Source of the DNA: an uncultured Chloroflexia bacterium | GTDB taxonomy: Bacteria; Chloroflexota; Dormibacteria; CF-121 | Direction of reading: 5' to 3' | DNA length: 64,000 bases | NCBI GenBank assembly: GCA_963795805.1 | Contig: CAWCIV010000004.1 | Location: 79,052 to 143,051, forward strand | Shown here: positions 10,075 to 63,268 of the stretch, piece by piece | How the letters are laid out: each line of letters starts with the position of its first letter | Numbering within the stretch: the first letter of the stretch is position 1 | The notes under the pieces: model-generated | What the model saw: only the letters and a program-made list of their open reading frames with translations | Databases searched by the model: none | What the model was told of the DNA's origin: nothing | Position numbers and translations under genes: made by a program

Positions 10075-12183
10075 ATCACCCTGGAGCTCAAGGCCCTCGC
10101 CGACCAGGTCGCCGGAACCTTTACCGTGCTCGCCGGCGACCGCACGCTGCTGCGAAAGGCCGCCTGCGCGGTCAAGGTCAATGGGACCTGGCATGCGAGC
10201 ACGGCCTCACCTCAACCACATGAGGACGCGGCGACGATCACCTGGCAAGCCGGGCCGGCGGTAGCGATCGCCCGGCTGATTCAGCACGAGGGCGGCGTCG
10301 TCATCGAATGCGAGCTGAACAATCGCGGCGAGGCCTCGCTCACCTTCAACGCCTGGCGACCCCTGGTCGTGGATGGTGGCGGCTCCGCCCTGCACGTCGG
10401 TGAGGAGCCGTGGCGAGCGAGCGCGCTGATCAACGGCTACCAATCCTGGGACTACGCCGGTATCCATCCGCTGGACGAGGCGATCAAGGAGGGCGACCGA
10501 AACCCGCCCGCCTACTCCTGGTGGACCGCAGCCATTTGTGACGGACAGGCAATGTTCGTGGCCCAGGTGTTGAAAGCTCGGCGCTTCGCCACGGTTTTCA
10601 CCTGGCGCTATCACCGCGATCAGCACCCTGACGACACGCTGCCCACCGACATCCCCAACTTCGTCGCGGAGCAGCACGGCTCCCCCCTGTCGCAGCCGGA
10701 ACAGCGCAGCGGCATGCCGGAGGCCTTGCAGCTCGAGGTCCCGCCTGGCGAAGGGATCGTCTCCGACCCGGTCCTGCTGGTCTATGGCGAGGACGGTACG
10801 GCGACGCTGCGCAAGGCGATCGCGCTCGCCGGCCGGGCCTCCAGTGCCTGCAGCTATCCGGTGGTGCCCCGCGGCTGGTGCAGCTGGTACCACCTCGGGC
10901 TGGGGGTCACCGCCGAGGACATCGCCCGGCACGCGGCCTTTGTCGCGAAGCGATTTCCCGAGCTGGCGAAAACGACCGGCTCGGGGCACCGGCCGATCAT
11001 CCAGCTCGACGATGGCTGGATGCCACGCTGGCAGCGTTGGGGCGACTGGGTCGCGAATGAATACTTCTCGCAGGGGCTGAAGGCGCTGGCCAGTTCGGTG
11101 CGACGCCACCGGCTGGAGAGCGGCATCTGGCTCGCGCCGTTCCACGTGGCGGCCGACTCCCAGCTGGCGCAGGCGCATCCCGACTGGCTGGTGACGACCG
11201 ACGCCGGGCAACCCCTCGTCGACCCGCGGCTCAACCGTGCCTACCACGTGCTCGATCCCACGCACCCCGAGGCGGTCAAGTTTCTCGAAGACCTGTTTCG
11301 CGGCCTTCGCAAGGACGGCTTCACCTATTTCAAGCTGGACTTCCTGTACGGCGCCGCCTACGAAGGGCGCCGGCACGATGCGGAGGTGACCGGGACGCAG
11401 GCGCTCCGGCTCGGCCTGAAGAAGATCTTCGACGCGGTGAACCCGCCGGGCAAGCCGGAGGAGGCCTTCATCCTCGCCTGCGGCGCGCCCCTGCTCCCGA
11501 TCGTGGGCCTCGTCCACGGCAGCCGCACCGGCGGCGACGTTGGTGCCCCGCAAATGGTCGATGGCAAAGTGGCGCCGCCCTACATCGGATTCGCGCTGAT
11601 CCTCTCCATGGCCCGCAACCAGGCGGCGCGGCTCTTTTTCGACCACAGCCTCTTCATCGTCGACGCCGACGTCGTGATGGCCGCCTCGCCGCAGCTCACG
11701 CCCGACCAGGCGCGCGTGATGATCACGATTGCCGCGCTCTCCGGCGGCATCTTCATGCTGAGCGACGACCTCGAGACGCTGCCGCCCGATCGACTGGCGC
11801 TGCTGCGGAACCCGAATGTCCTGGGCCTGGTCGGCGGCCCCGCCGCGGAACCGGTGCACCTCTTCAGCGCGCCGGACCGCGAGGCATCCGACCACTGGTA
11901 CGCCTCACCGCAGGAACTCCCGCCGCTGTGGGTGCGGGCCGACGCCGATGGGACATTCATCGCGGCGGTCTACAACTGGAGTGACCAGGCGCGGCCGTAC
12001 CGCCTCCGGTTCGCCGAGGTCACCGGTGCCGGGGGTGCCTTTACGATCGTCGATCTCTGGTCTCATCGACGCGGCGGACGCAGCCTCGGCGTGCGAACGG
12101 ACGGCCTCCGCTTGCGCCTGGCGCCGCACAGTGTGCGACTACTTAAAATGGAACCCACAACGGCCGGGCCGCCGCGGTCCTGA
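10075..12183 (+). CDS. Glycoside hydrolase family 36 (alpha-galactosidase-like)
   Basis: Motifs GWCSWY, QLDDGW, GIWLAPF and YFKLDF. The track starts it at GTG 10126, but in-frame high-GC3 codons begin at ATC 10075 / CTG 10081, so the start is uncertain. Confidence 0.85.
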   Translation: MTLELKALADQVAGTFTVLAGDRTLLRKAACAVKVNGTWHASTASPQPHEDAATITWQAGPAVAIARLIQHEGGVVIECELNNRGEASLTFNAWRPLVVDGGGSALHVGEEPWRASALINGYQSWDYAGIHPLDEAIKEGDRNPPAYSWWTAAICDGQAMFVAQVLKARRFATVFTWRYHRDQHPDDTLPTDIPNFVAEQHGSPLSQPEQRSGMPEALQLEVPPGEGIVSDPVLLVYGEDGTATLRKAIALAGRASSACSYPVVPRGWCSWYHLGLGVTAEDIARHAAFVAKRFPELAKTTGSGHRPIIQLDDGWMPRWQRWGDWVANEYFSQGLKALASSVRRHRLESGIWLAPFHVAADSQLAQAHPDWLVTTDAGQPLVDPRLNRAYHVLDPTHPEAVKFLEDLFRGLRKDGFTYFKLDFLYGAAYEGRRHDAEVTGTQALRLGLKKIFDAVNPPGKPEEAFILACGAPLLPIVGLVHGSRTGGDVGAPQMVDGKVAPPYIGFALILSMARNQAARLFFDHSLFIVDADVVMAASPQLTPDQARVMITIAALSGGIFMLSDDLETLPPDRLALLRNPNVLGLVGGPAAEPVHLFSAPDREASDHWYASPQELPPLWVRADADGTFIAAVYNWSDQARPYRLRFAEVTGAGGAFTIVDLWSHRRGGRSLGVRTDGLRLRLAPHSVRLLKMEPTTAGPPRS

Positions 12184-12204
12184 CCGCCACCCAGATCCAA
12201 AATC

Positions 12205-12825
12205 ATGCGTCGCGTGCTCTTTTTTCGTGTCTACGACGTGCTGCCCGCCCGGCTCCCGGAGCTGGAGCGCGACACGCGCGATTTCGCCCGCAGCCGAGCC
12301 TGGAGGGGCGATGGCTTCTGGCTGGCAACCTCCCTGACCACCTCGCTCTTCGAGGCGGAGTACTTCCGCCACGCCAGCGAGGAGGAAGGGCCAGCGCTGT
12401 CGGGCGCGGGCTTTATCCGGTTGCTCGGCGATGAGACCGACGCGATCGCCTCGCTCTACTTCCTCAACGACGTCTCGCAGCGCTTCCACGGCCGTGCCGT
12501 GCTGAAAGACGAGGAGAACCCGATCGCCAAGCTTCGCAACCTCGACATCCGGCAAGGACGGCTCCCGTCGGGGATGCCGATCGAGGACGTGCTCGCCGCG
12601 CGGCCCGTGATCAAGAAGCTGGAGGGCGAGGCGATCACGTTTTATCCGCCGACGTACCGGCCGAACCCGTACTTTCGCCGGGACAAGCCCGGCATGTGGG
12701 GCTTCAGCCTCAAGGGTGGGATCCGTGATTTTGCCCCATCGTTCCTGGAAGCCGAGGCGGAGGCGATGCGGATCTATCGCGGGTTCCGGCACATCAAGCG
12801 CGATTTCGAAGACCTCGAGCCATGA
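12205..12825 (+). CDS. Hypothetical protein
   Basis: 206-aa ORF with typical codon bias. ATGA overlap with the next gene. No family recognised. Confidence 0.75.
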   Translation: MRRVLFFRVYDVLPARLPELERDTRDFARSRAWRGDGFWLATSLTTSLFEAEYFRHASEEEGPALSGAGFIRLLGDETDAIASLYFLNDVSQRFHGRAVLKDEENPIAKLRNLDIRQGRLPSGMPIEDVLAARPVIKKLEGEAITFYPPTYRPNPYFRRDKPGMWGFSLKGGIRDFAPSFLEAEAEAMRIYRGFRHIKRDFEDLEP

Positions 12826-13688: not shown

Positions 13689-13704
13689 TCGCGACGCCAG
13701 AGCC

Positions 13705-14163
13705 GTGCGGGTCGTGATCCAGCGGGTCACCGAGGCCTCGGTGACCTGGGAGGGCGGCGCGTCGTCGATCGGCGCCGGCTTCTGCATCCTGGTTGGCGTC
13801 GCGGACACGGACACCGAGCGGGATGCCGACTACCTTGCCGAGAAGATCCTCAAGCTGCGGGTCTTCAGTGACGACGCCGGGAAATTCAACCTGAGCGCGA
13901 CGCAGGTGGGTGGCAGCCTGCTGGTGATCTCGCAGTTCACGCTCTTTGCCGATGCGCGAGGCCAGAATCGGCCCAGCTTTCTCAAGGCGGCACGGCCCGA
14001 GGTTGGACAGCCGCTGCTGGACCGGTTCATCGACCGGCTGCGGACCAGCGGCCTCCGGGTCGAGGCCGGCTCCTTCGGCGCGCAGATGGCGGTGCGGCTG
14101 GTGAATGACGGCCCGGTGACCCTGGTCCTCAGCACCGACGACTGGCAGACGCGCATCGGCTGA
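13705..14163 (+). CDS. dtd: D-aminoacyl-tRNA deacylase
   Basis: MRVVIQRV, SQFTL and NDGPVT signature motifs. Confidence 0.95.
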   Translation: MRVVIQRVTEASVTWEGGASSIGAGFCILVGVADTDTERDADYLAEKILKLRVFSDDAGKFNLSATQVGGSLLVISQFTLFADARGQNRPSFLKAARPEVGQPLLDRFIDRLRTSGLRVEAGSFGAQMAVRLVNDGPVTLVLSTDDWQTRIG

Positions 14164-15993: not shown

Positions 15994-17091
15994 TTGCGTC
16001 CCCGGTCCTTTGCCCTTCTGCTCGTGCCGATCCTGGGTGCCTGCACGGGCGGGCCCACCGGGAGCGTCGGAGCCAGCGGCTCGCCCGTCGGCGCCGTTTC
16101 CACGCTCAAGCCGACTCCTACGCCCACGCCGGTCCCAACCCCGCCGCCCTTGAGCCTGGCCAGCGTGTTCGGCGCTGGGAAGCCCGACCTCTCGGTTGTC
16201 GATCAGAGCAAACTTCGGGTGCTGATCGCCACGGGGGATGTGATCCCCGCCCGCGAGGTCAACTACCAGGTGCTGCTCCACAAGGACTTCCTCTATCCCT
16301 GGCTAAAGACTGCCGATTACTTGAAGACGGGCGACCTGCTCTTCATCAACCTCGAATCACCCCTGCTCAAGCGCTGCCCCACGACCCGCAGCGGCTTCAC
16401 GTTCTGCGGCGATGCCCGCTCGATCGCGGGCCTCGACTATGCCGGCGTCAACGTCGCCAACCTGGCAAACAATCACTCGACCAACTATGGCCCGGCCGGG
16501 ACGAGTGAAACGATCGCGCTGCTGGGCCAGCACGGCATCGGCGTTTCGGGAAACGGGTTATCCGTGGTTCGCGATATTCGCGGAATCAAATTCGGGTTCA
16601 TCGGCTTCAACGGCGTTGGGACGCATATCGATCGAGCCGAGCTCAAGCGCGAAATCGACCTGGTCCGGCCAGCCTGCGACGTCCTCGTGGTCGCCTTTCA
16701 CTGGGGCAAGGAATACGAGCTGCTTCCGACGGTCGGCCCGGGCATCGCGCCGGATAACCCGCGCGACATTGGCCACCTCGCCGTCGACCTGGGCGCCGAC
16801 CTCGTGGTCGGAAATCATCCGCACTGGGTGCAGCCGGTCGAGATCTATCACAACCGGCTGATCGCGTACGCGCATGGCAACTTCATCTTCGACCAGATGT
16901 GGTCGCAGGAGACGCGCGAGGGCGTGGTCGGCCGCTACACCTTCTATGGCACCCAGCTCGTCCGCGTCGATTACAAGCCGCTCGTCATCGACGGCTACGC
17001 CCAGCCACGCTGGCTCGACGAGACCACCGGTGAGGGGAAGGCGATCATCGACCGGATGTCGAAGGCCTCGGACCAGCTCGCCGCCGGCTAG
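15994..17091 (+). CDS. CapA-family (metallophosphoesterase-fold) lipoprotein
   Basis: Lipobox-like LGAC, and motifs GDV, NLESP, NLANNHS, FHWG, GNHPHW and HGNFIFDQ. Confidence 0.88.
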   Translation: MRPRSFALLLVPILGACTGGPTGSVGASGSPVGAVSTLKPTPTPTPVPTPPPLSLASVFGAGKPDLSVVDQSKLRVLIATGDVIPAREVNYQVLLHKDFLYPWLKTADYLKTGDLLFINLESPLLKRCPTTRSGFTFCGDARSIAGLDYAGVNVANLANNHSTNYGPAGTSETIALLGQHGIGVSGNGLSVVRDIRGIKFGFIGFNGVGTHIDRAELKREIDLVRPACDVLVVAFHWGKEYELLPTVGPGIAPDNPRDIGHLAVDLGADLVVGNHPHWVQPVEIYHNRLIAYAHGNFIFDQMWSQETREGVVGRYTFYGTQLVRVDYKPLVIDGYAQPRWLDETTGEGKAIIDRMSKASDQLAAG

Positions 17092-18188
17092 CGATCAGTC
17101 GCGGCCTCCCTCGACGTCTCGCTGGAGCTGACGACGCGCTCGCGAACCGTGTCGCCCCGGTAGACGGCGAGATACCGCTCGGCCATGTGCCGCGGACTGA
17201 ATCGCTCGCGGGCAACTTCGGCGCACCGGACCGGATCGATCTGGTCGAGGCGGCTGGCCGCCGCCACCAGGCCGTCGACGTCGTCGGCCAGGAACCCGGT
17301 CACGCCGTCCTCGATCAACTCCGGCGCTGATCCCGTCCGAAGCGCCACGATCGGCGTCCCGACGACCATGCATTCGACCATCGCGAGCCCGAACGGCTCG
17401 GGCCACTGCAGCGGGAAGATCCCGGCGGCCGCCCGCGAGATCAGCCGGGCTTTCTCGGCGCCAGCCACGTTCGGGTAGTACTCGACGGTCCGGCCGAGGT
17501 GGGGTTCGACCTCGTCCTCGAAGTAGCGCTCCCCCTCACCGCTACGCTCCACCTTCCCGGCGAGGATGAGCTTACGCCCGGTCCTGCGGGCGACCTCGAT
17601 CGCCAGGTGCTGGCCCTTGTCGGGCGTGATCCGAGCAACCTCGATCAGGTAACGCTCGCGGCTATGCGCGGGTGGTGCCGCCGGAATCTCGACCGCGTTG
17701 GGGACGACGGCCGCCACCTTGACCGCCGGCGCGGTGGCTGCCTGGCTGGCGCTGATCGCGCAGAGGCGGACCCGGTCCTCGATCTCCCGGTAGAAGGCGC
17801 AGTAGGGCTCCAGCAACTCCCCGTGAATCGTGTGGACGACGACTGGGGCAACTCCCGAATGCAGGGCGAGGAGCGTCCCGACCAGGCTGGAGTGCTCATG
17901 AATGACATCGAAGCGCTCGCCCGCAAGCCGGCGGTAGACGCGGGCCAGGTAGGTGTCGAGCCGCGGCCACTCATGGGCGCCACCCAGGTCCCTCACCCAG
18001 CGTGCATCCCCCACCGCCACGACCCCCGGCCCGGATCCCTCTGCCCCGAACACGACGACGTCGTGGCCCATCCGGCGAAGCTCGGTGTGGAGCAGGTGGA
18101 CGACGAGTTCCGTGCCTCCGTAGCCGCGCGGCGGCAGCGGATACCACGGCGGAGCCACGAGCGCGATACGGAGCGGGTCCGATGCGAT
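17088..18188 (-). CDS. Glycosyltransferase family 4
   Basis: RIALVAPPWYPLPPRGYGGTE and WPEPFGLAMVE. Probable ATC start at 18188, 6 nt after GGAGGT. The open frame extends to 18257. Confidence 0.9.
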   Translation of the reverse strand: MASDPLRIALVAPPWYPLPPRGYGGTELVVHLLHTELRRMGHDVVVFGAEGSGPGVVAVGDARWVRDLGGAHEWPRLDTYLARVYRRLAGERFDVIHEHSSLVGTLLALHSGVAPVVVHTIHGELLEPYCAFYREIEDRVRLCAISASQAATAPAVKVAAVVPNAVEIPAAPPAHSRERYLIEVARITPDKGQHLAIEVARRTGRKLILAGKVERSGEGERYFEDEVEPHLGRTVEYYPNVAGAEKARLISRAAAGIFPLQWPEPFGLAMVECMVVGTPIVALRTGSAPELIEDGVTGFLADDVDGLVAAASRLDQIDPVRCAEVARERFSPRHMAERYLAVYRGDTVRERVVSSSETSREAATDR

Positions 18189-18350
18189 GAGCGCACCTCC
18201 AGGTGCCGGGTTCCCCTCCCCCGGGACACTCCGATCATATCGGCTGGACGGTGGCACTCCACCCGCATAAAACGTGATAGCGGTTCGTCAGGCTGTCGGA
18301 GTCTCCCAGATGGTGTTAATTGCTGAGTCCGTCGCGGTACAGTTGTGTCA

Positions 18351-29799: not shown

Positions 29800-30762
29800 A
29801 TGCGCGCCGACGATTTCGTGACCCGCCGGCGGCCGGAGTGGGAACGGCTGGAGGCACTCCTCGGCAGGACCGGGACCAGTCGGTTCGGCGGGCTGCGTCC
29901 GACCGAGGTCCTGGCGCTCGCGGGCCTTTACCGGCGGGCGACCGCCGACCTGGCTCGAGCGAAACGTGACTGGCCGAACGCGCCGGTGGCCGGATACCTC
30001 AACGGGCTGGTGGCACGCGGCCATGCCGCCGTCTACCAGTCAGGCGGCAACCTCCGGCAGCGGATCGCGACCTTCTATGGCCTGACGCTCCCGCAGACCT
30101 ATCGCGCCTCGGGTCGATACATGCTGGCGGCGGCGGCCTTGCTGTTTGGGCCGGCGATCATTGCCTTCATCGCGATCCGGCTGGACCCGCGGCTTGCCTA
30201 CGCCCTGGTCCCCGCCCAGATTGTCCAGCTGGTTCACAATCACCAGCTCTGGACGCAGATCCCGGCGTCGGAGCGGCCGCTGATGGCCGGCGTGATCATG
30301 ACGAACAACATCAATGTCTCGATCCTGGCCTTCGCCTTCGGCGTCCTGCTCGGACTCCCCACGATCTACATCTTGATGACCAATGGGATCCAGCTCGGCG
30401 GCCTGCTCGGCCTGACCAGCGCCTACGGCATCGGTGGCGGCCTGCTGGATTTCGTCATCGCGCACGGCGTGATCGAGCTGTCGGTCGTGGTGGCGGCCGG
30501 CGCCTCGGGCCTGATGATGGGCTGGGCCCTCGTCATGCCGGGCGCCTACCGGCGGCGGGACGCGCTCGTGCTGGCGGCGCGCAAATCGGTGATCATCCTC
30601 GCCGGGCTCGCGCCGCTCCTGATCATCGCCGGCATCATCGAAGGCAACCTGAGCCCGTCCACCGCGCCGACGGCGGTGAAGGCCGCGGTTGGCCTGACCT
30701 CAGGCGTGCTCCTCTACACCTACCTGCTGCGAACCGGCCGTCCCAAGCGTCAGCCCGGGTAA
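29800..30762 (+). CDS. SpoIIM / DUF95-family membrane protein
   Basis: EWERLEALL...[25 protein letters not shown] and IIEGNLSP. Confidence 0.9.
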
Positions 30763-32696
30763 GCGGCGAGGAAGATCGGCCCGTTCACGACTTTCTCAGC
30801 GTGACCGTCCGCCCGGACGAGCAGGATCCCATCGACATCGCCGCTCGAGTTGGGGTTTCCCACCGCGACCATGAACGCGGTGCCGTTTGGTTGCGGCAGC
30901 GCCACCACCGGTAGCTGGCCGGTCGCGGCCGGGTTGCCGCCCAGACGCCAGCGCACCGTCCCGCGATGCCAGTCCAGCAGCCTGATTTCGCCCGGCGTTT
31001 GGACCATAAAGGACGGTGCGGTGACGACCAACGATCCATCCCAGGAGAAGGCGATCACCCGCTGATCGGTCAACCGCGCGACGACGCCTCCGTCACTCAG
31101 GCGGCGGATGACCGTCGCCGAGGGACCAGGGCCAAGGTTGCTCTCCGCGACGTAGCGGCCGTCGCGCGAGCCAACCAGCATCTGTGACGAGTTCGTGTAT
31201 GCGTGGCTGTACAGGGTGCGGCCCGTCGAAAGCGCGATCACGCGCACGTCGAGGTATCCGCCCTGCACCTGCTGGCCGAGGATGGCGCGATCCGCCAGGT
31301 CGCTGCAAGCGATCAGCGCGTAGCCGCTCTGGCGTCCAATCGGGCCAAGCGTGACCACCCGGCGCGCGGCGCCCCCGACCTTGCCCACGGCGAGCCACTG
31401 GGTCGGATTCGCGTTGGCGCCACCGGGATCAAAGCCGATCTCGCAATACCGGCCCGGAACATCCGACCAGACCGCGCCGAAGTATTGGCGGTCTGATACC
31501 GCGCGCCCCTGCCGGTCCATCGCGACGCCCGTGCCGTCCATCAATTGGAACCAGGACCCGTCCGCATTCTGGTGCGTGTTCCCACGCGCGTAAACTGAGC
31601 CGACCATCGCGCCGCTCCAGTCGAGGGCGGTGAAGCGAGTCGGGTCGCCGGACGGCGACAGCCACGGGCTGGAGGTCGAGTACCACACCACCGGGACTCC
31701 ATCAGGCGGCGCGCCGGCTTCCGTGAGGAAGGTCCAGGTTCGGTGAATTCGGGCTGTCGGATCGGTCGACCCGACGGTGACGTCAGCGGCGTACTGGGTC
31801 CGCGGCTGGAGATCGGAATAGCGAACCGACCATGTCGCGCCGCTCCAGACGCCGGGCGCAAGCGTCGCCGGCGGCTGCAGCGTGATGACCGGGTCGCTGC
31901 TTGGGCGCCGGCTGAAGCCGATACTCAGCTGGCCGTAGCGCGCGACCGTGCCGGCGCCATCGATCGGTTCCAGCCGAGCGAGTCGTGGCGGTCCCTCGGC
32001 TACGAAGGTCCAGCGTTTGACGAAGTGTCCGGTGTCATGAAGGTGGCTCTGGTACTGCGCGTCCAGCACGAGCTCATAGCGCTGGCCGAAGTGCAGGCCG
32101 CTGTATTCGATGAGGAGCGTGCTTCCGTCCCAGAAGGTCACATGCTGGTTCCCGTCCGAAGGCTGATGCGTGAGCGTCGGCGTGCCAAGCGGGCGGCGGG
32201 CGAACTGAACCCGAAACTGTCCATCCACTCCGACTTCGCGGGCGCCCGCCGGCGGCGCCAGGTCCGAAATCGTCGGCGCGGCGGCTGCCAGCGCGTCCGA
32301 CCGGGTTCGCTGCAGCTGCACCAGCCCCGCGGCGGCAAGGATCAGCACCGCCAGCCCGAGGGCGGTGAGACGGGAGCGGGCCGGCCGCGAGGTGTACTGC
32401 CGATCTTCGACCGCATCCAGGATTCGCAGGTGCAGGTCACGGGAAACGCGCTGGTCTCGTGGCGGAAGCGTCTGCAGGAGCGGGCCCGCCGTCCTGCCAC
32501 CGGCCAGCTTGCGGATCGCCGCACACAGTCTCGACTCGATGTCCTGCCCGCGTGAGGTCAGGACATCGGCAAGGGCCTGCTCGGTGATCCGCTCAGCTCG
32601 TGGCTCGTCCTGAACGAGCGTGCGGGCGTAGCCGAAGACCCGATCCTCGTATTCGCGCACCGGCGCTTCGAACGATTCCCGACTCTGCGGTTCCAG
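30750..32696 (-). CDS. Membrane protein: sigma-region-2-like N-terminus, one TM, two Ig-like domains and a beta-propeller-like C-terminus
   Basis: CTG at 32696, 5 nt after GGAGG. N-terminus [29 protein letters not shown] near residues 110-130. Ig-like repeats end in WTFxT/A. Confidence 0.7.
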
Positions 32697-32727
32697 ATTG
32701 GCCTCCCACCGGGCGATCTACTGACAG

Positions 32728-37385: not shown

Positions 37386-38294
37386 GCCGCGACCTGGCGG
37401 TAGGGGGCAGCGGCTTCCGCCGCGCGGGCATAGATGGTCGCATCAGCCGGACGGTGCCCATAGATAGCCTCCTCGAACAGGCGCAGCAGGGGCTGCAACG
37501 TGTCGCGACGATCGGACCGCGCGAACAGCTCGCGGACGGTGAGGGGACTCCGCACCCAGGCCTGTTCCCCGCTGATGCGAACCGCGACGCCCCCGGCGAG
37601 CATCCTGATCGCTCCCCGATAGTCCCCGGCCGCCGCGAGCCGGTCCGCCTCGCCGAAGAAGTCGGCGGGCGCCCGCTGCACCGGACCCCGGGAGCGCGCC
37701 CCTGGCCTCACCGCCGCCGCCGCTCAGGCCGCTGCGGAGCACCAGCACCACCAGCGCCAGGATGATGAACAGGGCCAGGGCCAGGATGAGGAGGATTGGC
37801 AGGTGAAGATGCAGGTTCTGGACACCGAGCCGATTCAGCAGCCAGGCAATCGCCTTGACCACGGTGCCGAGGACCAGCTCAGGGATCGAGGGGGCGGTTG
37901 TCAGATTGGAGTAGCGGGGCATCGAGAGCGTGCGGCCGAGAGCCTGCGACGCCAGCGCTGGATCCGGCGTGTCGACTCGTCCCTGCAACGCCGCGTAGAG
38001 CGCCTGCAGCCGCTGGTCGGCATCGACCAGGCGCGGCGGCTCTGCCCGCAGGTCGGCGAGGATCTCGGGCTGTCCATTCCCGGTCGCCTCGGTCAGCACG
38101 GTGATCGCCTGGGTTCGCGACGGCGAATCCCCGCGCTCAGCGAACTGGACGAGCGTCAGGGCGCGGTGGATGGCGTTGGCGTAATCGTCGGCGGTGCCGG
38201 CAGCCGCAACCGGACCGGGGCGCCCCAGGAGCACGACGACAGCGAGGACGATGCAGAGTCCGGCCCGGGCCGGACGGCCGCTAGGCGGGCGCAG
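37382..38294 (-). pseudogene. DUF4129-family membrane protein with +1 frameshift near 37711
   Basis: The signal peptide, helical and TM part lie in the frame of ORF 37443-38573. The DUF4129-like tail (GDYRGAIR...TVRE...FEEAIYG) lies in ORF 37382-37711. Probable CTG start at 38294. Confidence 0.72.
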
Positions 38295-43881: not shown

Positions 43882-44434
43882 CGCGGCCTCCCAGTTGCTC
43901 TCGAAGGCGGTCGAGCGCCCGCGACAATCGCGATTTGACGGTGCCTTCCGGCCAACCCAGGACTCCCGCGCTCTCGTCCGATGACAGGTCGAGGAAATAC
44001 CGGCAGGCGATGACAAGCCGGTCCTCATGGCGAAGGGTATTAACGGCACGGAGGAGCTCCGCACGCTCCTCCGTGGCCACGGCCAGGCTCTCGGGTGATG
44101 GGGCCGCACCACCCGTGCCCAGCTGGTCGGCAACGCGCAACGAGAGATCGATGCGGCGGCCCGAGCCGCGACGCTGGTTGCGGGCTTCGTTGGCGACGAT
44201 CTGGAGGATCCACGGCCGGAAGCTCGCGCCCGGGCGAAAGCGGGCAAGGGCGCGGAAGGCCTTGACGAATGCCTCCTGGCAGGCGTCCTGCGCGTCGGCC
44301 TCGGACTGGGCGATCAGATAGGCAGTGCGAAAGGACACGGTTGAATAACGCTCCACAAGTTGCTCGTAGGCGTTGACATCGCCGGCACGCGCTCGATCGA
44401 TAAGCTGCGACTCCTCCAGTGGACGGCCCTCCAC
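43874..44434 (-). CDS. ECF RNA polymerase sigma-70 factor
   Basis: AYEQLVERY...DAQDACQEAF, FRPWILQIVANEARN and GTVKSRLSRA. The start is either GTG 44434 or CTG 44419 (after GGAGG). Confidence 0.93.
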   Translation of the reverse strand: MEGRPLEESQLIDRARAGDVNAYEQLVERYSTVSFRTAYLIAQSEADAQDACQEAFVKAFRALARFRPGASFRPWILQIVANEARNQRRGSGRRIDLSLRVADQLGTGGAAPSPESLAVATEERAELLRAVNTLRHEDRLVIACRYFLDLSSDESAGVLGWPEGTVKSRLSRALDRLREQLGGRDG

Positions 44435-46842: not shown

Positions 46843-47237
46843 CGCGGGCCTGGCTCGCCCTGGGGAGCAACCTCGGGGACCGGGCCGCGTACCTGGCGGC
46901 GACACGCAACGGGTTGGCCCGCGAGGGCATCGCCGTGGTCCGCGCCTCGGAGGTGGCCGAGACCGAGCCGGTTGGGATCGTCTCCCAGCCGCGCTTCCTC
47001 AACCAGGTGCTCGAGGTGGAGACGGCCCTCGAACCACGGCCCCTGCTTGACACGATCAAGCGTCTCGAGACGGATCTCGGGCGGCAGCCCCGCCAGCGCT
47101 GGGGTCCGCGGGAGATCGACATCGACATCCTTCGCTACGACGAGCGGTCGGTGGACGAGCCGGGGCTCAAGATCCCGCATCCCGAGCTGCGGAACCGGCC
47201 ATTCCTGCAGACGCTCCTTGCCGAGGTTGACTCCTGA
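46839..47237 (+). CDS. folK: 2-amino-4-hydroxy-6-hydroxymethyldihydropteridine diphosphokinase
   Basis: ATGA overlap with folP. ALGSNLGDR, FLNQV, WGPREIDIDIL and IPHP. It is the C-terminal part of track ORF 45936-47237. Confidence 0.95.
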   Translation: MTRAWLALGSNLGDRAAYLAATRNGLAREGIAVVRASEVAETEPVGIVSQPRFLNQVLEVETALEPRPLLDTIKRLETDLGRQPRQRWGPREIDIDILRYDERSVDEPGLKIPHPELRNRPFLQTLLAEVDS

Positions 47238-48373
47238 CAGGGCCGCCGCTACGCGTTGCCTGGCTGGGACACCAGAGCGGCCGCTCTGGGGACGGTCTGC
47301 TGACCTATTCCCGCGAGACGGTCGCCGGACTTCGGTCGCGTGGGGTCAAGGTGTTCTTCGTGCATCACGGCGATCTCGGAACCGCGACCGACGACACGAT
47401 CGCCTTGAAGTCGCTGACGAGCAGCCATCGCTACATCATCTCGTCGCCACGGACCAAGCGGACCATCACCGAGCTCCTGCGCCGGGAGCGCGTCGACCTG
47501 GTGCATGTGAGCCTGAGCTTCTCCACGCTGATCGACTTCGGTCTTCCCGAGCTCTGTCACGAGCTCGGTCTGCCGGTGGTCGCTACCTTTCATGTCCCGT
47601 ACGACTCACGCTTCTCACTCTGGCAGGGAATCAGTACCGCCCTCTACCGCTTCTACTCGCAGTCACTCGCCAGCTACGACCGGGTCGTGATCTTTTCCGA
47701 GCAACAGAAGACCTTGCTGGTGCATTACGGCGTCCCCGAGGCCAACATCGCGGTGATTCCCAATGGGGTCGACGTGGCCAAGTACACGCCCGGCCCAAGC
47801 GCCTTTGCACAGGGGATGGGCGCGGGGACCCTGATCGGCTACCTCGGGCGCATCGACCCGGAGAAGAATGTCGACACGCTCCTGCGCGCGTTCCAGGACC
47901 TCGATCCGCCGGAGGAGGTCAAGCTGGTGCTGGTTGGCAGCGGAAGTGACCGCCGCCGTCTCACCCGCCGGTTCGCCGGCGAGCGCGTGGTCTTCACCGG
48001 GCAGGTGATCGACGAGGCCGAGCGGATCGGGATGCTGCGCGCCATGGACATCTTTGTCCTGCCATCAACCGTCGAAGGACTCTCACTCTCGTTGCTGGAG
48101 GCCATGGCGTGCGGTGTCGCCCCGGTGGCGACCGACGTCGGGTCCGATGGCGAGGCGATTCGCAACGCCGGCATCGTTCTGGACCCGCGCGACCTGGAGA
48201 GCCAGCTTCGCCTCGCGCTCCGGACGCTGCTGGAATTTCCGGACTTCCGCGCTGAATTGGGGCGGCGGGCGCGCGCCCGCGCGTTAGAGCGCTACAGCCT
48301 CGAGGACAACCTCGAGCGTCTGCTCGCGGTCTACCGCGAGCTGCGACCGGCGGCTGACGTCGCGGTCTCCTGA
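47234..48373 (+). CDS. Glycosyltransferase family 4
   Basis: The in-frame N-terminus (PLRVAWLGHQ..GDGLLTYSRE) begins at CTG 47234, overlapping the folK TGA. Also EGLSLSLLEAMACG. Confidence 0.9.
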   Translation: MTGPPLRVAWLGHQSGRSGDGLLTYSRETVAGLRSRGVKVFFVHHGDLGTATDDTIALKSLTSSHRYIISSPRTKRTITELLRRERVDLVHVSLSFSTLIDFGLPELCHELGLPVVATFHVPYDSRFSLWQGISTALYRFYSQSLASYDRVVIFSEQQKTLLVHYGVPEANIAVIPNGVDVAKYTPGPSAFAQGMGAGTLIGYLGRIDPEKNVDTLLRAFQDLDPPEEVKLVLVGSGSDRRRLTRRFAGERVVFTGQVIDEAERIGMLRAMDIFVLPSTVEGLSLSLLEAMACGVAPVATDVGSDGEAIRNAGIVLDPRDLESQLRLALRTLLEFPDFRAELGRRARARALERYSLEDNLERLLAVYRELRPAADVAVS

Positions 48374-51766: not shown

Positions 51767-52792
51767 TCAGCGCAGTATAGGCGGGCGTATGCGCGCCTTC
51801 ACCTGCTGCAGGCGGCGCTCGAGACGATAGGACGCGGGCCGTAGGACCCGCTCGTAGAGGCCCACGTAACGGACGGTTTCGCCGCCGAAGCCGGTCTTGA
51901 ACCGGTAGAGGCCGAACCACGGATGGTCCGGGGCCGGCTCCTCCGGGATGCCCCACCAGTCGTACGTGTCGCAACCGAGCGCCCGGAAATCGAGCATCGC
52001 CTGCCAGTGCAGGAGGTAATTGGGCATCAGCTCCCGCTTCAGGTCGGTCGAGCCCCCAAAGAGGTAGTACGCGGTCTTGCCGAAGCGGAAGACCATGATG
52101 CCGCCGAGGGCGTCGCCCTCGTGAAAGGCGAGGTAGATTCGGATCTCATCGCGCGGCTCGAACAGGTCGAGGCACGCCTGGTAATACGCAACACCGGGGA
52201 GATGAATCCCCTGTCGTTTGGCCGTGTCGCTGGCCAGCCGGGCGAAGGTCGTCACGTCGCGCGACGCCTGGACCGTCACCCCCTTCCGCTCTGCGAGGGA
52301 CAGGTTGTAGCGCGTCTTGGGTTTGAAGCCGGCGCGCAGCGCCTCCGGCGTCCCACCGATCGGGAGGAGCCGGGTGGCTTCAGGCTGAACCGGCCGGCCG
52401 TTGGTGAAGCCGCGGCCCTCGAAGAACGCCGGCCATTCATCGCCCACCCGGGCATTGGGCTCGACCCGGAGCGCCAGACCGCGGCCGCTGCGCGCGCGCC
52501 GCTCGAGCTCATCGAGGGCCGTCAGCCGCTCCGCTTCGATGACGGCCGGCCCGCGCGGGACATAATAGACGGCCCCGCCGGGTAGCAGGCTCGGGTTTCG
52601 CTGCAGCGAGCACACCCCGGCGCGACCGTGGTGGAAGGCGAGGCGCTCGATGCTCCAGCCGAACCGTGACTGCAGCACGCCCCAGGTCCAACTCTGCAGC
52701 AGGTTGCCTTCGGGCTGCGCGAGCAGGAGCCGATCCCATTCCTGCGCCCCGATGGCGTCGCCGTCGGTGACGACGAGCGAGGGATCAGACAA
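51767..52792 (-). CDS. FemABX-family peptidyltransferase (lipid II aminoacyltransferase-like)
   Basis: LLQSWTWG, YYVPRGP, FKPKTRYNL, YDWWG and GLYRFKTGFGG. Confidence 0.88.
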   Translation of the reverse strand: MSDPSLVVTDGDAIGAQEWDRLLLAQPEGNLLQSWTWGVLQSRFGWSIERLAFHHGRAGVCSLQRNPSLLPGGAVYYVPRGPAVIEAERLTALDELERRARSGRGLALRVEPNARVGDEWPAFFEGRGFTNGRPVQPEATRLLPIGGTPEALRAGFKPKTRYNLSLAERKGVTVQASRDVTTFARLASDTAKRQGIHLPGVAYYQACLDLFEPRDEIRIYLAFHEGDALGGIMVFRFGKTAYYLFGGSTDLKRELMPNYLLHWQAMLDFRALGCDTYDWWGIPEEPAPDHPWFGLYRFKTGFGGETVRYVGLYERVLRPASYRLERRLQQVKARIRPPILR

Positions 52793-57149: not shown

Positions 57150-57159
57150 GGCTCGCGCC

Positions 57160-58499: not shown

Positions 58500-60755
58500 T
58501 CAGGCGGCGCTGCGACCCTCGGCGGCAGCCCCCGGCTCTCCCAGGTTGACCCGTCGGTACAGATGCCTGAGGGGGGCCGGCGCCCACCAGTTCGCCCGGC
58601 CGAGCAGCCTCATCAGCGCCGGCACGATCAGCGCCCGCACCAGGGTGGCGTCGATCGCGACCGCGATCGCCAGCCCGAGGCCGATCGACTTGATGACGAC
58701 GACGTCGGCCAGCCCGAACGCGAGGAAGACCGCCACCATGATGGCGGCGGCGCCCGTGATCAGCCGTCCACTCCGCTCGAGCCCCTCGGCGATGGCCGCG
58801 GTCGTATCGCCCGAGCGGCGATATTCCTCCTGGATCCGGCTGATGAGCAGGACCTCGTAGTCCATCGAGAGGCCGAAGACGATACAGAAGAGGAGGACGG
58901 GCACCGACGGGTCGAGCGCGGCCGGGGTGAAGTTCAGCAGCGAGCTGAGGTGTCCCTGTTGGAAAATCCAGACCAGGGCGCCGAAGGATGCCCCGATCGA
59001 GAGGATGTTCATGATCACCGCCTTGAGCGGCAGCACGACCGAGCCGGTCAGGAGGAAGAGCACCAGATAGGTCACCAGGAGGACGTAGCCGACCGCCAGC
59101 GGGATCCGCTGCACGATGAAATCGGTGAAGTCGATGTCGAAGGCGGCGACCAGCATCTGGCTCCCCGACGGCGCGCTCAGGCTTCGCAGGGAGTGGACGA
59201 TGGCGCGCGCGCCGGTGCTCTCCGCCTTCTCCTTGGTGACCACCGAAAGCACGGCAATATGCTGCCCGACGCTCTGGTGCACCGCCTCGGCCACCCGGGT
59301 TGGGAGCTGGCTCGGCGCTTGGACCAGGAGCGCCTGGTACTCGGCTCGGCTTGTCGCCGGGTCGACGTTGACCGCGCTTTCAACCTGCTCGACGCCCGGA
59401 ATGCGGCCGACCTGGCGGCTGAGGTCGTAGAGGGCACCGATCCGAGCCGGGGTGAGCGGGTTCCCGTCCGGGTAATTGATCACGACATCGAAGCGGGTCT
59501 GGCCCTGCCCGGGAAACTTCTGCAGCAGGTCATAGCCGCGCCGCGATTCGGCCGACGGTGGCAGCATCCCGACGTCGCCGTTGGCGATCTGGATCTGCAG
59601 GACCGGCGAGGCGAGCAGGGCGAGGACCGCCACGACCGGCACCAGCACCAGGAACGGCCGTCGCATCACCCAGGTGGCGAGGGCGTGCCAGAAGCCCCGG
59701 CCTTCGGGGCGGCGGGGAAGGGGGAGGCGGACCCAGTTCACGCGGTGGCCGAGGATGGCGAGCAGGGCGCCCAGGAAGGTCAGCGCATAGAGCACCGCGA
59801 TCGCCACCACGATGGCGCCGGCGAACCCCATCGAAGCCAGGAAGGATCCCTGGAAGAAGAGCATCGCGCTCAAGCCAATCGCGACCGTGATGCCGGAGAA
59901 CAGGACGGCTCGCCCGGAGGTCGCCATGGCGGCGGCCAGCGCGTCCTCGACGGAGCTCTGCTTGGGGAGCTCCTCGCGAAACCGGTTGACGATGAAGAGC
60001 GAATAGTCGATGGCGACCCCGAGGCCGATCAGGGTGACGATGTTCTGGGCGTAGGTCGAGACGTCGGTGACCCGTGACAGTAACCCGACGCCGGCCAGCC
60101 CGCCGACGACGGCCAGGCCTCCGACCCCCAGCGGCAGCAACATGCTGATCACCGTGGCGAAGACGATCAGGAGCAGCGGGACGACCAGCGCCAGGGAGAT
60201 GATCTCGGCCCGGCTCAGGTCGGCGGCCAGATACTTGTCGAACTCGTAGCCGATCGCGACGCTCCCGGTGCCGTAGACCACGAGGTGATCGGAGCGGACC
60301 TCCGAACGCAGCGACGGGTACAAGCTCCGCGCCGTCGCGTAGTCGTCTTTCAGGGAGACGACGGCAAACGCATGATGCTGGTCTAACGAGGTCAGCGCCC
60401 GGGCCTGGTCCGGCAGGCCGTCGTATGGCGTCGTAACGCTCTTGACCCGTGAATCCGCACGGAGCGGTTGGAGCGCCGCCAGCATCGCCTGCTTGAACGC
60501 CGCATCGCTGACCCGCATGGAATCACTGCCAAAGACCAGCTCGAAGGATGAGCCGGCGCCACTCTGCGGCAGCTCGTTCTGCATCAGGGTGAGGGCGCGT
60601 CCCGATTCGGTCTTGCTGCCGCCGCTGTTCTTCAAGGTCCCGCCGTGGCTGAGCGAGAGGATCGACGCCACGAGCAGCACGGTCGAAGCGGCGAGGACCA
60701 GCCACCGGAAGCGGTAGACCAGGTGACCCCAGCGTTCCAGCACGATCAATGTCAA
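58500..60755 (-). CDS. MMPL (RND-family) transporter
   Basis: GLGVAIDYSLFIVNRFREEL, FGLSMDYEVLLISRIQEEY and DATLVRALIVPA. Confidence 0.93.
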   Translation of the reverse strand: MTLIVLERWGHLVYRFRWLVLAASTVLLVASILSLSHGGTLKNSGGSKTESGRALTLMQNELPQSGAGSSFELVFGSDSMRVSDAAFKQAMLAALQPLRADSRVKSVTTPYDGLPDQARALTSLDQHHAFAVVSLKDDYATARSLYPSLRSEVRSDHLVVYGTGSVAIGYEFDKYLAADLSRAEIISLALVVPLLLIVFATVISMLLPLGVGGLAVVGGLAGVGLLSRVTDVSTYAQNIVTLIGLGVAIDYSLFIVNRFREELPKQSSVEDALAAAMATSGRAVLFSGITVAIGLSAMLFFQGSFLASMGFAGAIVVAIAVLYALTFLGALLAILGHRVNWVRLPLPRRPEGRGFWHALATWVMRRPFLVLVPVVAVLALLASPVLQIQIANGDVGMLPPSAESRRGYDLLQKFPGQGQTRFDVVINYPDGNPLTPARIGALYDLSRQVGRIPGVEQVESAVNVDPATSRAEYQALLVQAPSQLPTRVAEAVHQSVGQHIAVLSVVTKEKAESTGARAIVHSLRSLSAPSGSQMLVAAFDIDFTDFIVQRIPLAVGYVLLVTYLVLFLLTGSVVLPLKAVIMNILSIGASFGALVWIFQQGHLSSLLNFTPAALDPSVPVLLFCIVFGLSMDYEVLLISRIQEEYRRSGDTTAAIAEGLERSGRLITGAAAIMVAVFLAFGLADVVVIKSIGLGLAIAVAIDATLVRALIVPALMRLLGRANWWAPAPLRHLYRRVNLGEPGAAAEGRSAA

Positions 60756-60799
60756 GCTTACGCGGCCGTCAACGCCGAACTCGGGGTGCCGCCGGGATC

Positions 60800-62068
60800 C
60801 TAGCCGGCGACGGCGGGGGCCAGCGCCGGCTGGCGCGGCGCTGCGTATTCGACGAGCAGACGGTCAACGGTCGACTGCCAGGTGAACTGGGTCGCCACCA
60901 GCCGGCTGCGCCGGCTGAAGCAGCGCCGCAGCTCCTCATCGGAGAGGAGCCGCGCGATCCGATCCGCGTAGCGGGCGGGATCGCGGGAGACCAGCGTGTA
61001 GCCGGTCAGCCCATCCTTGACGATCGTCGGGAGACCGCCGACCCGGGCGGCGACCACCGGGGTGCCGCAGGCTTCGGCTTCGAGGGCCACCAGGCCGAAG
61101 GACTCGCTGTAGGAGGGGACGACACAGACCGAGGCCAGGTTCAGGTAGGTCGCCAGCGTCGGCTGGTCAACCGCTCCGACGAACCGAACCTGGGAGGCGA
61201 TGCCAAGCTCGCGCGCGAGCGCCTCGAGGCGGGCGCGCTCGCCTCCGGTCGCTCGGCTCTCGGAGGCGCCGTTCTGGCTGTCGCCGCCGATGATGACCAG
61301 CGCCAGGGGAGCGGCGACCATCCCGTCGTTGGCCAGGATGCCGAAGGCCCGGACCAGCGTCTCGGCACCCTTGAGGCGCTCCAGGCGGCCGGCAAACATG
61401 ATCACCCGGGCCTCGCCCAGTCCCAGCTCTGCTCGAAGGGTCTCGCTCGGCCTCGGCCCGAAGAGCCGGAGGTCAACGCCGGGCGGCACCACCGCGACCT
61501 TGTTCCGGGACGCCCCGTAGAGGCGCACCAGGTCGTCGGCTTCCTGCACGCTGGACGCGATCAGCCGGTCGCTGTTGCGGACCACGCCCTGCTCGACCGC
61601 GATCCGGTGATCCGGCTCCAGCACGGCGCCCTCGGCGGCCTGCTCGTTCTTGACCCGCGCCAGGGTGTGGAAGGTGTGGAACCAGGGGAGCTTCCACTCG
61701 TCCCGCAGGCGGGACCCGGCCCAGCCGGAGAGCCAGTAGTGACTGTGGACCAGGCTGTACTCGCGCTTCCGCCGCCGCTGCTCCAAAAGGACGGCCTCGG
61801 TGAAGGTCGGCAGCAGGTCGAAGAGCCGGTCCTTGCCGACCGAGGTGGCCGGCCCGGCCTTGATCTGGGTGACCCAGCTGTTGGCGCCCAGCCGCACCCG
61901 GTCGGGGCCGTCGGCCGAGGCGCGCCGGGTAAAGACCTCCGTTGGGATCCCCCGCCGGCCCAGCTCCTGGCAGACGGCGCGGATGTACACGTTCATGCCG
62001 CCGTTCTCGCCCGACCCGAGGTCGGCGATCGGCGACGCGTGCATACTGACGATCGCGAGCGGCTTCAC
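60800..62068 (-). CDS. MshA-like GT4 glycosyltransferase (D-inositol-3-phosphate glycosyltransferase family)
   Basis: HASP..GGMNVY, HSHYWLSG, HTFHTLA.VK and PSYSESFGLVALEA. Confidence 0.8.
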   Translation of the reverse strand: MKPLAIVSMHASPIADLGSGENGGMNVYIRAVCQELGRRGIPTEVFTRRASADGPDRVRLGANSWVTQIKAGPATSVGKDRLFDLLPTFTEAVLLEQRRRKREYSLVHSHYWLSGWAGSRLRDEWKLPWFHTFHTLARVKNEQAAEGAVLEPDHRIAVEQGVVRNSDRLIASSVQEADDLVRLYGASRNKVAVVPPGVDLRLFGPRPSETLRAELGLGEARVIMFAGRLERLKGAETLVRAFGILANDGMVAAPLALVIIGGDSQNGASESRATGGERARLEALARELGIASQVRFVGAVDQPTLATYLNLASVCVVPSYSESFGLVALEAEACGTPVVAARVGGLPTIVKDGLTGYTLVSRDPARYADRIARLLSDEELRRCFSRRSRLVATQFTWQSTVDRLLVEYAAPRQPALAPAVAG

Positions 62069-62269
62069 AAACTCTCCTTGCTACGCGGCTGTCCCTTCAT
62101 TAACGCCGGTTCAGTGCCGCCCGGTCAACTTCAAAGCGGTACAAGGCCAGCGCGATCCGGCAGCAACTCTGCTCGAGTGCGGCGACGGTCCGTCACCGGG
62201 CAGCCTGTGCTACGGTTATCGAAATCTTAGCCACCCTGGCCTGAAAGCAAACCTGCTCATACCATTCAT

Positions 62270-63268
62270 CTGAAGCCAGTCAACCCGCTCCGGCGCTTCC
62301 AGCTGCCCCTCCTGATCCTCACGCTCGTCTTCTGCTACGGCGTGATCGGCTACATGGTGATCGAGCGCTGGAACTTCATCGACGCCCTGTACATGGTGGT
62401 CACCACCGTGGCGACGGTCGGCTACCAGGAGGTTCATCCGCTCGGCACCGTGGGTCGGGTCTTCACCATGACGGTGATCGTCAGCGGGGTCGGCACCATG
62501 CTCTACACCCTGGGAATCTTCGGCGAGCTGCTGGTCGATGGGCAGCTCGCTCGGTACGCTAGGATGCGCGGCATGGAGCGCCGGATCACGGACCTGAAGG
62601 AGCACTTCATCGTCTGCGGATACGGCCGGATGGGGACCCGCGTGGCCCAGGAGTTCCGCCAGCTGGACACGCCCTTCGTCGTGGTGGAAAGCAACAGCGC
62701 CTCGCTCGACCGCCTGCGCAGCGCTGAAATCCTCTACGTCGAAGGTGACGCCACCTCGGACGAGTCGTTGCTCAGGGCCGGCATCCTCCGCGCCAAGGGA
62801 CTCGTGACCGCGGTGGACTCCGACGAGCGGAATGTGTTCATCACGCTCACGGCCCGGGCTCTCAACCCGGCCCTCTTCATCGTGGCCCGCTCCTCGTTCC
62901 CGGATTCGGTCGAGAAGCTGCGCCGCGCGGGCGCCAATCAGGTCGTGTCTCCTTACTTGATGGGGGCCCATCGGATGGCGGCGCTGGCCGTGCGGCCGGT
63001 TGCCGTCGACGTCCTCGATTCCGTCCTGAACGGCGAGAACATCGACCTCGTCGTGGAGGAGATGCTGGTCCCGTCGGCGTCCAGGCTGCTGGGCCGGTCA
63101 CTCGCCGAGTCCGGTATGCGCGAGGCGGGAGCCAACATCCTGGCCATCCGCAAGCGCAGCGGCCAGTTGCGCATCAACCCGCCCGACAGCCAGGTCCTGG
63201 AAAGCGACGACCTGCTGGTCGCGATCGGGACCCGCGCGCAGATGAGCGCGGCAGAACGCCTCCTCTGA
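62270..63268 (+). CDS. Two-TM ion channel with RCK (TrkA-N / TrkA-C) domains
   Basis: TM1 (FQLPLLILTLVFCYGVIGY) requires a start upstream of the track GTG 62342, with CTG 62270 in frame. Also pore TVGYQ, CGYGRMG, and GDAT. Confidence 0.88.
   Translation: MKPVNPLRRFQLPLLILTLVFCYGVIGYMVIERWNFIDALYMVVTTVATVGYQEVHPLGTVGRVFTMTVIVSGVGTMLYTLGIFGELLVDGQLARYARMRGMERRITDLKEHFIVCGYGRMGTRVAQEFRQLDTPFVVVESNSASLDRLRSAEILYVEGDATSDESLLRAGILRAKGLVTAVDSDERNVFITLTARALNPALFIVARSSFPDSVEKLRRAGANQVVSPYLMGAHRMAALAVRPVAVDVLDSVLNGENIDLVVEEMLVPSASRLLGRSLAESGMREAGANILAIRKRSGQLRINPPDSQVLESDDLLVAIGTRAQMSAAERLL

Follow-up and report, generated by a model that had tools for sequence, protein, structure and literature searches.

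At least six genes in a 64,000-nucleotide stretch of DNA from an uncultured soil bacterium of the Candidatus Dormibacterota (family Dormibacteraceae) appear to be translated from near-cognate start codons (CTG, ATC or ATT), which would be rescued by their sequence context and tolerated under weak selection combined with GC pressure. We give this reading a probability of about 0.7. The stretch, referred to below as the window, is G000:C4:79052-143051, part of a 3.2-Mb genome in four contigs (67% GC, 89.7% complete). Comparison with relatives indicates that the odd starts are a heritable habit of the Dormibacteraceae and no error of assembly. Non-canonical starts make up a fraction of a percent of genes in model bacteria, and the share in the window, at 11–13%, is far above that level.

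Gene starts were compared codon by codon with those of 20–30 independently assembled relatives, and all of the evidence on start codons given here is of this comparative kind. The relatives, as matched by the K+ channel protein discussed below, are almost all metagenome-assembled genomes of Candidatus Dormibacterota or Dormibacter, from several studies and several assemblers. The window region is syntenic in relatives, and with about 60 kb from each of five of them, and parts of a sixth, all conserved genes of the window were compared. Throughout, 'canonical' refers to ATG, GTG and TTG; g1 is the genus of the window (represented at site 3 by this genome, G003 and G005), and g5 is another genus.

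A sequence-only reading of the window had proposed non-canonical starts for 6–8 of 57 genes, and the codons of all eight sites were found at the coordinates, on the strands and in the contexts that it had assigned to them. Alignment of orthologues, which it had suggested as a check, upheld six of the eight, left CTG 38294 probable and refuted CTG 44419, so that the tally becomes about 6–7 of some 55 genes. The associated claim that no canonical codon lies upstream was borne out for 47234, 63265, 32696, the channel gene and 10081, but not for 18188, 38294 and 44419. The sites, with the elements that accompany them, are as follows.

47234–47236, plus strand: site 1, proposed CTG start of a GT4 glycosyltransferase gene (47234–48373), in a CTGA overlap with the folK stop (47235–47237)
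63265–63267, plus strand: site 2, proposed CTG start, overlapping the channel stop as CTGA, of a gene for an MGDG-synthase-like glycosyltransferase that runs from 63265 past 64000
32694–32696, minus strand: site 3, proposed CTG start of a gene for a Big_5-domain protein (30750–32696), from orthologue alignment
32702–32707, minus strand: putative Shine–Dalgarno (SD) sequence of site 3, GGGAGG, 5 nucleotides (nt) before CTG 32696, read from the sequence and kept in G003 and G005
18186–18188, minus strand: site 4, proposed ATC start of a GT4 glycosyltransferase gene (17088–18188), from orthologue alignment
18195–18200, minus strand: putative SD sequence of site 4, GGAGGT, 6 nt before ATC 18188, read from the sequence and conserved in orthologues
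62264–62266, plus strand: site 5, ATT, likely start of a K+ channel gene (62264–63268; Ion_trans_2, TrkA_N and TrkA_C domains), from orthologues
62208–62263, plus strand: extended −10-like element TGcTACGGT (62208–62216) followed by an SD-less leader of about 40 nt, from conservation in 27 sequences
37443–38294, minus strand: site 6, secreted-protein gene with a probable CTG start (38294–38292), 11 nt before the stop of the upstream gene
10081–10083, plus strand: site 7, proposed CTG start of an alpha-galactosidase-like gene (10081–12183; Melibiase in Pfam), 8 nt past a TAG (10070–10072)
44432–44434, minus strand: site 8, canonical GTG start of an ECF sigma factor gene (Sigma70_r2/r4 in Pfam), five codons upstream of CTG 44419

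Proposed starts behind a strong Shine–Dalgarno sequence

In the first of three contexts that might rescue a weak codon, a perfect SD core 5–6 nt upstream would compensate for it, as at CTG 32696, ATC 18188 and, elsewhere in the genome, infC. Each of the three uncoupled cases that were examined (site 3, site 4 and infC) has the core GGAGG, which stands 4–10 nt before only about 7% of 993 unambiguous canonical starts.

At site 3, all three g1 genomes have GGGAGG, a spacer of 5–6 nt and then CTG, and at the aligned codon eleven orthologues from g5 have either GTG (eight) or ATG (three), which confirms the proposal that CTG 32696, 5 nt after GGAGG, serves as a start. The downstream GTG at 32660 is replaced by CTG in G003 and by GTT in G005. 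A paralogue of this protein (N-terminus LKSNDRPWFEP...) is found in G020 (L036/L037) and in G015, where AGGGAGGGCGCT is followed by CTG; an alternative TTG lies 11 codons upstream.

The arrangement at site 4 (GGAGGT, 6 nt, ATC) is kept in four species (this genome, G004, G003 and G002), and the same codon is GTG in G005 and TTG in G006 and G001; the proposal of ATC 18188 as a start, 6 nt after GGAGGT, is thereby confirmed. An in-frame GTG at 18257, 23 codons upstream, offers an alternative in this window only, and in G004 there is no canonical codon upstream.

Site 8 went the other way. Both G003 and G005 keep the string GTG gag ggc cgt cca CTG, and because GTG 44434 is thus conserved five codons upstream, CTG 44419 is unnecessary and its proposal as the start of the sigma factor gene is refuted.

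A semi-automatic pass over 28 assessable genes of the window gave one further odd-start case, in relatives; the gene at 60800–62080 (minus strand) starts with GTG here, with TTG in G005 and G015, and apparently with CTG, 6–7 nt after GGAGG, in G020 and G017.

Proposed starts at or near stop–start junctions

In the second context, the start would overlap the stop codon of an upstream gene or fall about 10 nt or less from it, and terminating ribosomes would re-initiate there (47234, 63265, 10081, probably 38294, and fmt outside the window). At sites 1, 2, 6 and 7 and at fmt, the start lies between −14 and +10 nt of the stop of an upstream open reading frame (ORF) on the same strand, the overlapping or close arrangement that characterizes stop–start coupling. 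A canonical codon within the overlap was not found at these junctions: the overlapped codon is CTG, or CTA in two relatives. At sites 1, 2 and 6 the conservation of the start codon itself is uninformative, because the codon overlaps another gene.

At site 1 the frame opens at 47231, and its first canonical codon, GTG 47351, is codon 40. Orthologues from 22 genomes of the family, and several at the level of the class, match the product from residue 3–6 onwards (identity 41–97%, and 70–97% within the family), and Pfam Glyco_transf_4 begins at residue 21 of the CTG-started protein. Amino-acid identity over the 39 codons that precede GTG 47351 is 70–95%. Over the 34 codons before GTG 47351, nucleotide diversity is 0.08/0.06/0.50 at codon positions 1/2/3, a pattern indicating that this stretch is translated. 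Nearly all orthologues have ATG or GTG one codon past the CTG position (in G003 and G004 as CTG ATG, giving a TGATG overlap with folK), where this genome has ACA; G012 likewise lacks a canonical codon. The orthologue matches and the third-position variation bear out the sequence-only proposal of a CTGA overlap at 47234.

Upstream of site 2 lie 172 open codons without a canonical one, and the next downstream, TTG 63376, falls after the FLFSDTGAGH motif of the product, which belongs to Pfam MGDG_synth. Among 22 orthologues, seven have the CTGA overlap, two have CTAA, and 13 have a separate GTG, ATG or TTG start at the same place, which confirms the proposed overlap of CTG 63265 with the channel stop. 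Fusion of channel and glycosyltransferase by frameshifting was considered and rejected, the two being separate genes with canonical starts in 13 genomes.

CTG 10081 (site 7) is kept in 24 of 24 orthologues, and the leucine codon two positions beyond it is ctc in four genomes, tta in ten, ctg in nine and cta in one. The next canonical codon varies in position from +3 to more than +80, and in g5 the open frame reaches back no more than four codons, to the TAG of the preceding gene. Diversity in the extension (0.17/0.13/0.31) has a period-3 pattern that starts at the CTG and is absent upstream of it. ATC 10075 and CTG 10081 had been put forward together as weaker candidates; the conservation makes a very strong case for CTG 10081, and does not extend to ATC 10075.

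Outside the window, fmt (G000:C1:412184, locus L221) appears to start with CTG one nt past the def stop. At this position, 28 genomes of the family have CTG (14), TTG (seven), GTG (four) or another codon (three; CTT, CAG or AAG); the CTG sits 1–10 nt after the def stop, and it is present also in two genomes of a sister family.

Site 6 is less certain. About 22 of 30 orthologues have CTG at the aligned position, and about ten of them lack any canonical codon that could preserve the signal peptide; many g5 genomes have TTG six codons downstream. Two features make the case ambiguous: the coding sequence of the upstream gene includes this CTG, and there is an in-frame TTG (38360) 22 codons before it. 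Thus CTG 38294, proposed for the clean signal peptide that it gives, is a probable start of the secreted-protein gene: the conservation of the codon speaks for it, and TTG 38360 and the overlap with the preceding gene speak against it.

Might the codon be irrelevant at such junctions, with ribosomes re-initiating or sliding independently of codon identity and CTG appearing incidentally from the common C before TGA? In keeping with this, the two CTAA orthologues of the channel–glycosyltransferase junction still lack a canonical start, and the fmt start position is CTT, CAG or AAG in three orthologues. Moreover, C precedes 48% of the TGA stops in the genome (542 of 1131), so that CTGA easily arises by chance; for this reason, and because some 30 of the 55 CTGA junctions in fact read CTGATG, a count of NTGA overlaps by first base, another suggested check, proved uninformative for C (canonical NTGA junctions number 155). 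However, CTG 10081 is invariant in all 24 orthologues at 8–12 nt past the stop, hence outside it, the fmt position is NTG in 25 of 28 genomes, and sites 3, 4 and 5 are away from junctions altogether. We regard a purely codon-independent process as improbable, and prefer the view that near-cognate codons are themselves read as starts.

Errors of sequencing or assembly, frameshifts or decaying pseudogenes in this metagenome-assembled genome are scarcely credible as the source of the odd starts. It is true that the genome is incomplete and in four contigs, that a genome-wide scan (see below) recovers ORFs beginning in mid-protein, compatible with indels, and that site 1 is found only in this genome and G012. 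On the other hand, the same odd codons recur in numerous assemblies made independently, in different studies and with different assemblers, which rules out sequencing error at sites 2–7, and site 1 differs from G003 by substitutions, not indels. No disrupted or out-of-frame N-terminus was seen at the tested sites: the odd-start ORFs run uninterrupted from end to end and align co-linearly with orthologues from many assemblies, with amino-acid matches beginning at residues 1–6 of the extended proteins.

The potassium channel gene and its leader

The third context would be a conserved, SD-less leader, as at the channel gene (62264), where it would probably serve deliberately low expression. In 22 of 23 channel orthologues the first canonical codon comes 20–24 codons downstream, after an NPL motif and inside the first membrane helix, and in the remaining one (L072) no canonical codon was found in the range examined. 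ATC or ATT stands six codons before the Asn of the NPL motif in 20 of the 23 (ATT 62264 in the window), and the other three have a nearby CTG. CTG 62270, two codons past ATT 62264, had been proposed as the start needed for the first transmembrane helix. The absence of a canonical start before this helix was upheld, but the conserved candidate is ATT 62264; CTG 62270 is restricted to the genus of the window, and conservation makes ATT the more likely start of the two. Relatives in the protein database that have a canonical start begin with MQPVNPL (ATG three codons later) or VSPPANPL (GTG nearby); their ATG or GTG lies within 1–3 codons of the position of ATT 62264. Pfam Ion_trans_2 starts at residue 18 of the ATT-started channel. 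Diversity in the extension is 0.15/0.13/0.39, and the period-3 signal is weak in the leader upstream of the start.

Public gene calls (of the Prodigal and PGAP types) give channels of 304 or 308 amino acids in this genome and most close relatives, without most of the first helix. If such calls were right, the shorter proteins would start at the first downstream ATG, GTG or TTG, and conservation upstream would have some other cause; this would fit the channel ORF, where 22 of 23 relatives have a GTG or ATG after 20–24 codons. We consider this very improbable. The skipped parts show the same third-position variation as the coding sequence downstream, and they hold most of helix 1 of the channel, strand 1 of the GT4 fold with its Gly loop, and the FLFSDTGAGH motif. 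Furthermore, the canonical codons downstream shift in position from relative to relative, and where relatives do have canonical codons these are at the upstream position. Starts at the upstream near-cognate codons remain the better account. Among the public channel clusters (P0001–P0069), most members start at a Met or Val within the helix; relatives that have a canonical ATG close to the true N-terminus have 332 amino acids.

A set of 27 sequences shares TGnTAnnGT and the leader (AGCCACCCTGGCC..AAAC..ACGATC) ahead of the channel gene. The element TGcTACGGT ends 47 nt before ATT 62264 and is the only conserved −10-like element at this gene; it may belong to a promoter. For leaderless initiation, a −10 element would be expected about 6–7 nt before the start codon. 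A generic promoter scan of the channel upstream region gave no match, the leader showed no unusual structure (z = −0.24), and an Rfam search of the window had no matches, hence no known riboswitch or other RNA before the channel gene. The leader is better conserved than the first codons of the gene.

Genome-wide occurrence of candidate odd starts

Unambiguous starts, available for 993 ORFs, are ATG (49%), GTG (32%) and TTG (18%), the last being unusually frequent. Enrichment of SD sequences was examined for every in-frame codon from the upstream stop to the first canonical start of 2254 long ORFs, a test with little power for coupled or SD-less starts. The fraction of codons preceded by an SD sequence is raised for ATG (19.8%), GTG (11.9%) and TTG (10.6%); the corresponding values for near-cognate codons are given below.

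A scan for coding potential picked out 54 of the 2254 long ORFs, with 8 bits or more of coding signal before their first canonical codon. It recovered sites 5 and 7, fmt and an SDR gene at a CTGA junction, missed sites 1–3, and recovered as a positive control the programmed +1 frameshift of the gene for RF2 (prfB; G000:C1 at about 499653, CTT TGA C after AGGAGC). It is a rough lower bound, in which matches are mixed with likely broken genes. One ORF recovered, at G000:C4:1255271, begins in mid-protein (6-phosphogluconate-dehydrogenase-like, ...GDVIIDGGNS) and is likely to represent a frameshift, a pseudogene or an indel.

At same-strand junctions, 319 downstream genes have a canonical codon between −4 and +20 nt from the upstream stop. 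A further 21 junctions have no canonical codon nearby and have coding signal in the gap; CTG or ATC/ATT is present in 13 of these 21.

Initiation factor 3, infC and the initiator tRNA

Are odd starts tolerated because initiation is policed less strictly in this lineage? The sequence-only reading had supposed relaxed start-codon selection and had suggested inspecting infC, which encodes initiation factor 3 (IF3), for changes in discriminating residues. The single IF3 gene was aligned with IF3 of E. coli, Geobacillus and Thermus. Of the residues that we take, from E. coli mutants, to be important for fidelity (R99, D106, R131, E134 and Y75), the first four are retained, and Y75 is replaced by Phe, as in Geobacillus. 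The infC gene (G000:C1:838783-839403, locus L192) has no canonical start before the INDQIR motif in any of 28 family genomes. Instead there is an invariant ACG, 8 nt past AAGGAGG and directly behind an in-frame TGA, and among the next five codons (A, R, E, L, R) all variation is synonymous, which makes ACG the likely start of infC in the family. A weak start codon in infC is a classical sign that IF3 continues to discriminate, and its non-canonical character in all 28 genomes suggests that autoregulation through the weak codon remains intact. The initiator tRNA (G000:C4:839341-839415) retains the three G–C pairs of the anticodon stem, and the 50 tRNAs include no extra initiator-like one for CUG or AUC. 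As folded by ARAGORN, the initiator tRNA pairs U1 with A72 where bacteria usually have a C1×A72 mismatch.

An alternative to rescue by context would be a biochemically relaxed or shifted hierarchy, in which IF3, the ribosome or the initiator tRNA accepts CUG and AUY nearly as well as UUG. The high rate of odd starts would accord with this, as would the free exchange of CTG for TTG and GTG, which extends to fmt, a housekeeping gene, the U1–A72 pair and the 18% share of TTG; and infC seemingly starts on ACG, weaker than the usual AUU, which would be sensible if AUU and AUC were poorly discriminated. Against it stand the conserved IF3 residues (with the Phe at position 75 shared with Geobacillus), the G–C pairs of the initiator tRNA, the apparently intact discrimination-based autoregulation of infC, the lack of genome-wide SD enrichment for CTG and ATC, unlike ATG, GTG and TTG, and the clustering of odd starts in compensating contexts. 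On balance such a hierarchy seems unlikely. Slightly less doubtful, though still tentative, is the wider idea that in the Dormibacterota CUG (and perhaps AUC or AUU) would initiate routinely and fairly efficiently, exchanging with UUG and GUG, and would serve 5–10% of genes including fmt, with the autoregulation of IF3 shifted to ACG. If a shifted hierarchy were true, the Dormibacterota would become the first phylum of bacteria whose set of start codons has expanded naturally.

The supposition of relaxed selection in the lineage thus stands in part: CTG and ATC/ATT starts do recur across the family and a sister family, but relaxation of IF3 is unsupported, since weaker policing finds no backing in the IF3 residues, the initiator tRNA, the infC start or the genome-wide SD test.

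Proposed evolution of near-cognate starts

The preferred explanation is that the ordinary initiator tRNA reads near-cognate codons (CUG four or five times in the window, AUC once and AUU once) in the helpful contexts described above. Conservation patterns, contexts and the toggling of codons are seen directly in the alignments; from these we infer initiation by fMet-tRNA (the formylmethionyl initiator), rescue by coupling or a strong ribosome-binding site, and a population-genetic cause. The position of the start would be fixed through evolution while its codon toggles among ATG, GTG, TTG and CTG, or between GTG or TTG and ATC, as happens at homologous positions at sites 2, 3 and 4, in fmt and in the gene at 60800–62080, and at the adjacent codon at site 1. 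The odd codons are T-to-C versions of accepted ones (TTG to CTG, ATT to ATC and, in infC, ATG to ACG), a character that fits GC-biased mutation in a genome of this composition together with weak selection for strong starts, as might prevail in slow-growing soil bacteria. In some genes the odd codon itself is, to judge from its conservation (24 of 24 at 10081, 20 of 23 in the channel gene), under strong purifying selection. With the helpful contexts, this makes the odd starts look more like site-specific use than sloppy selection.

Several observations weigh against the explanation. The lineage is uncultured, and the evidence rests on comparison of sequences. The CTG of site 1 is confined to this genome and G012, and sites 5 and 7 have no SD motif. 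The two CTAA orthologues of site 2 have only ACG or AAG as other near-cognate codons, and one channel orthologue seemingly has GTC in place of ATC (in an alignment read by eye); the CTA and the GTC together imply that codon identity may be non-essential at coupled junctions. There is no genome-wide excess of SD sequences before near-cognate codons (CTG 6.9%, ATC 8.0%, ATT 4.3%, against 7.1% for all non-start codons), so SD-led odd starts must be few. Several of the matches in the coding-potential scan are frameshifted genes or possible assembly indels. Finally, the genome-wide scans suggest that odd starts occur in 2–5% of genes, against 11–13% in the window.

Comparison with known systems

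The best-known precedents are infC and pcnB of E. coli, which both start with AUU and are policed by IF3. The likeness lies in a weak codon behind a good SD sequence, in the use of the initiator tRNA and in the non-canonical start of infC itself. The difference is that here many ordinary genes would be involved (glycosyltransferases, a channel, a glycosidase, fmt), and that infC apparently starts with ACG and not AUU.

In Deinococcus deserti and other Deinococcaceae, non-canonical starts have been reported for four genes, dnaA (ATC), rpsL (CTG), a folK-like gene (CTG) and infC (ATA), with mass-spectrometric proof for dnaA and rpsL (Baudet et al., 2010; PMC2830850). As in the present case, these are high-GC organisms whose conserved ATC and CTG starts came to light because N-termini are conserved among relatives. 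Unlike the situation in Deinococcus, the Dormibacteraceae would have 6–7 such starts in a single 64-kb window, and several elsewhere, in another phylum and in other genes, and they are proposed here from sequence comparison. A CTG start for folK, as in Deinococcus, was considered and rejected, since folK here begins with a conserved ATG or GTG.

The junctions resemble the ATGA and TGATG class of translational coupling (Huber et al., 2019, PMC6728339; review PMC12548453), sites 1 and 2 being 4-nt overlaps and sites 6, 7 and fmt lying within about 14 nt of the upstream stop, but differ in that the overlapped start is CTG (CTA in two relatives) and not the ATG or GTG that defines the class. The coupling literature leaves open how specific re-initiation is for the start codon. 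When all 64 codons were assayed as starts in E. coli, CUG, AUC, AUU and AUA formed the best non-canonical class, at about 1–2% of AUG (Hecht et al., bioRxiv 10.1101/063800). That is leakiness in the laboratory, whereas here the same class of codon seems to have been fixed and conserved at native gene starts.

These findings have a practical side. Gene finders applied to metagenomes accept only ATG, GTG and TTG, and odd-start proteins therefore lose their front, so that several percent of the proteins of this phylum are apparently truncated or given wrong starts. Truncated calls would distort protein families, structure predictions and assignments of signal peptides and membrane topology for an uncultured soil phylum. 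The lineage may also offer a natural system, with a fixed start position and a toggling codon, in which to gauge the strength of selection on start-codon identity, and it bears on SD strength and translational coupling as buffers of weak codons and on the effect of GC pressure on initiation signals.

Other genes in the window

Further genes of the window were flagged by tblastn for conservation upstream of the first canonical codon. All of them turned out to have conserved canonical starts, and were cleared:

12184, 12729, 23866, 35290, 36234, 40099, 44486, 51767, 57160 and 58500: genes with conserved canonical starts

The gene at 51767–52792 (minus strand) keeps its TTG start in all seven genomes compared.

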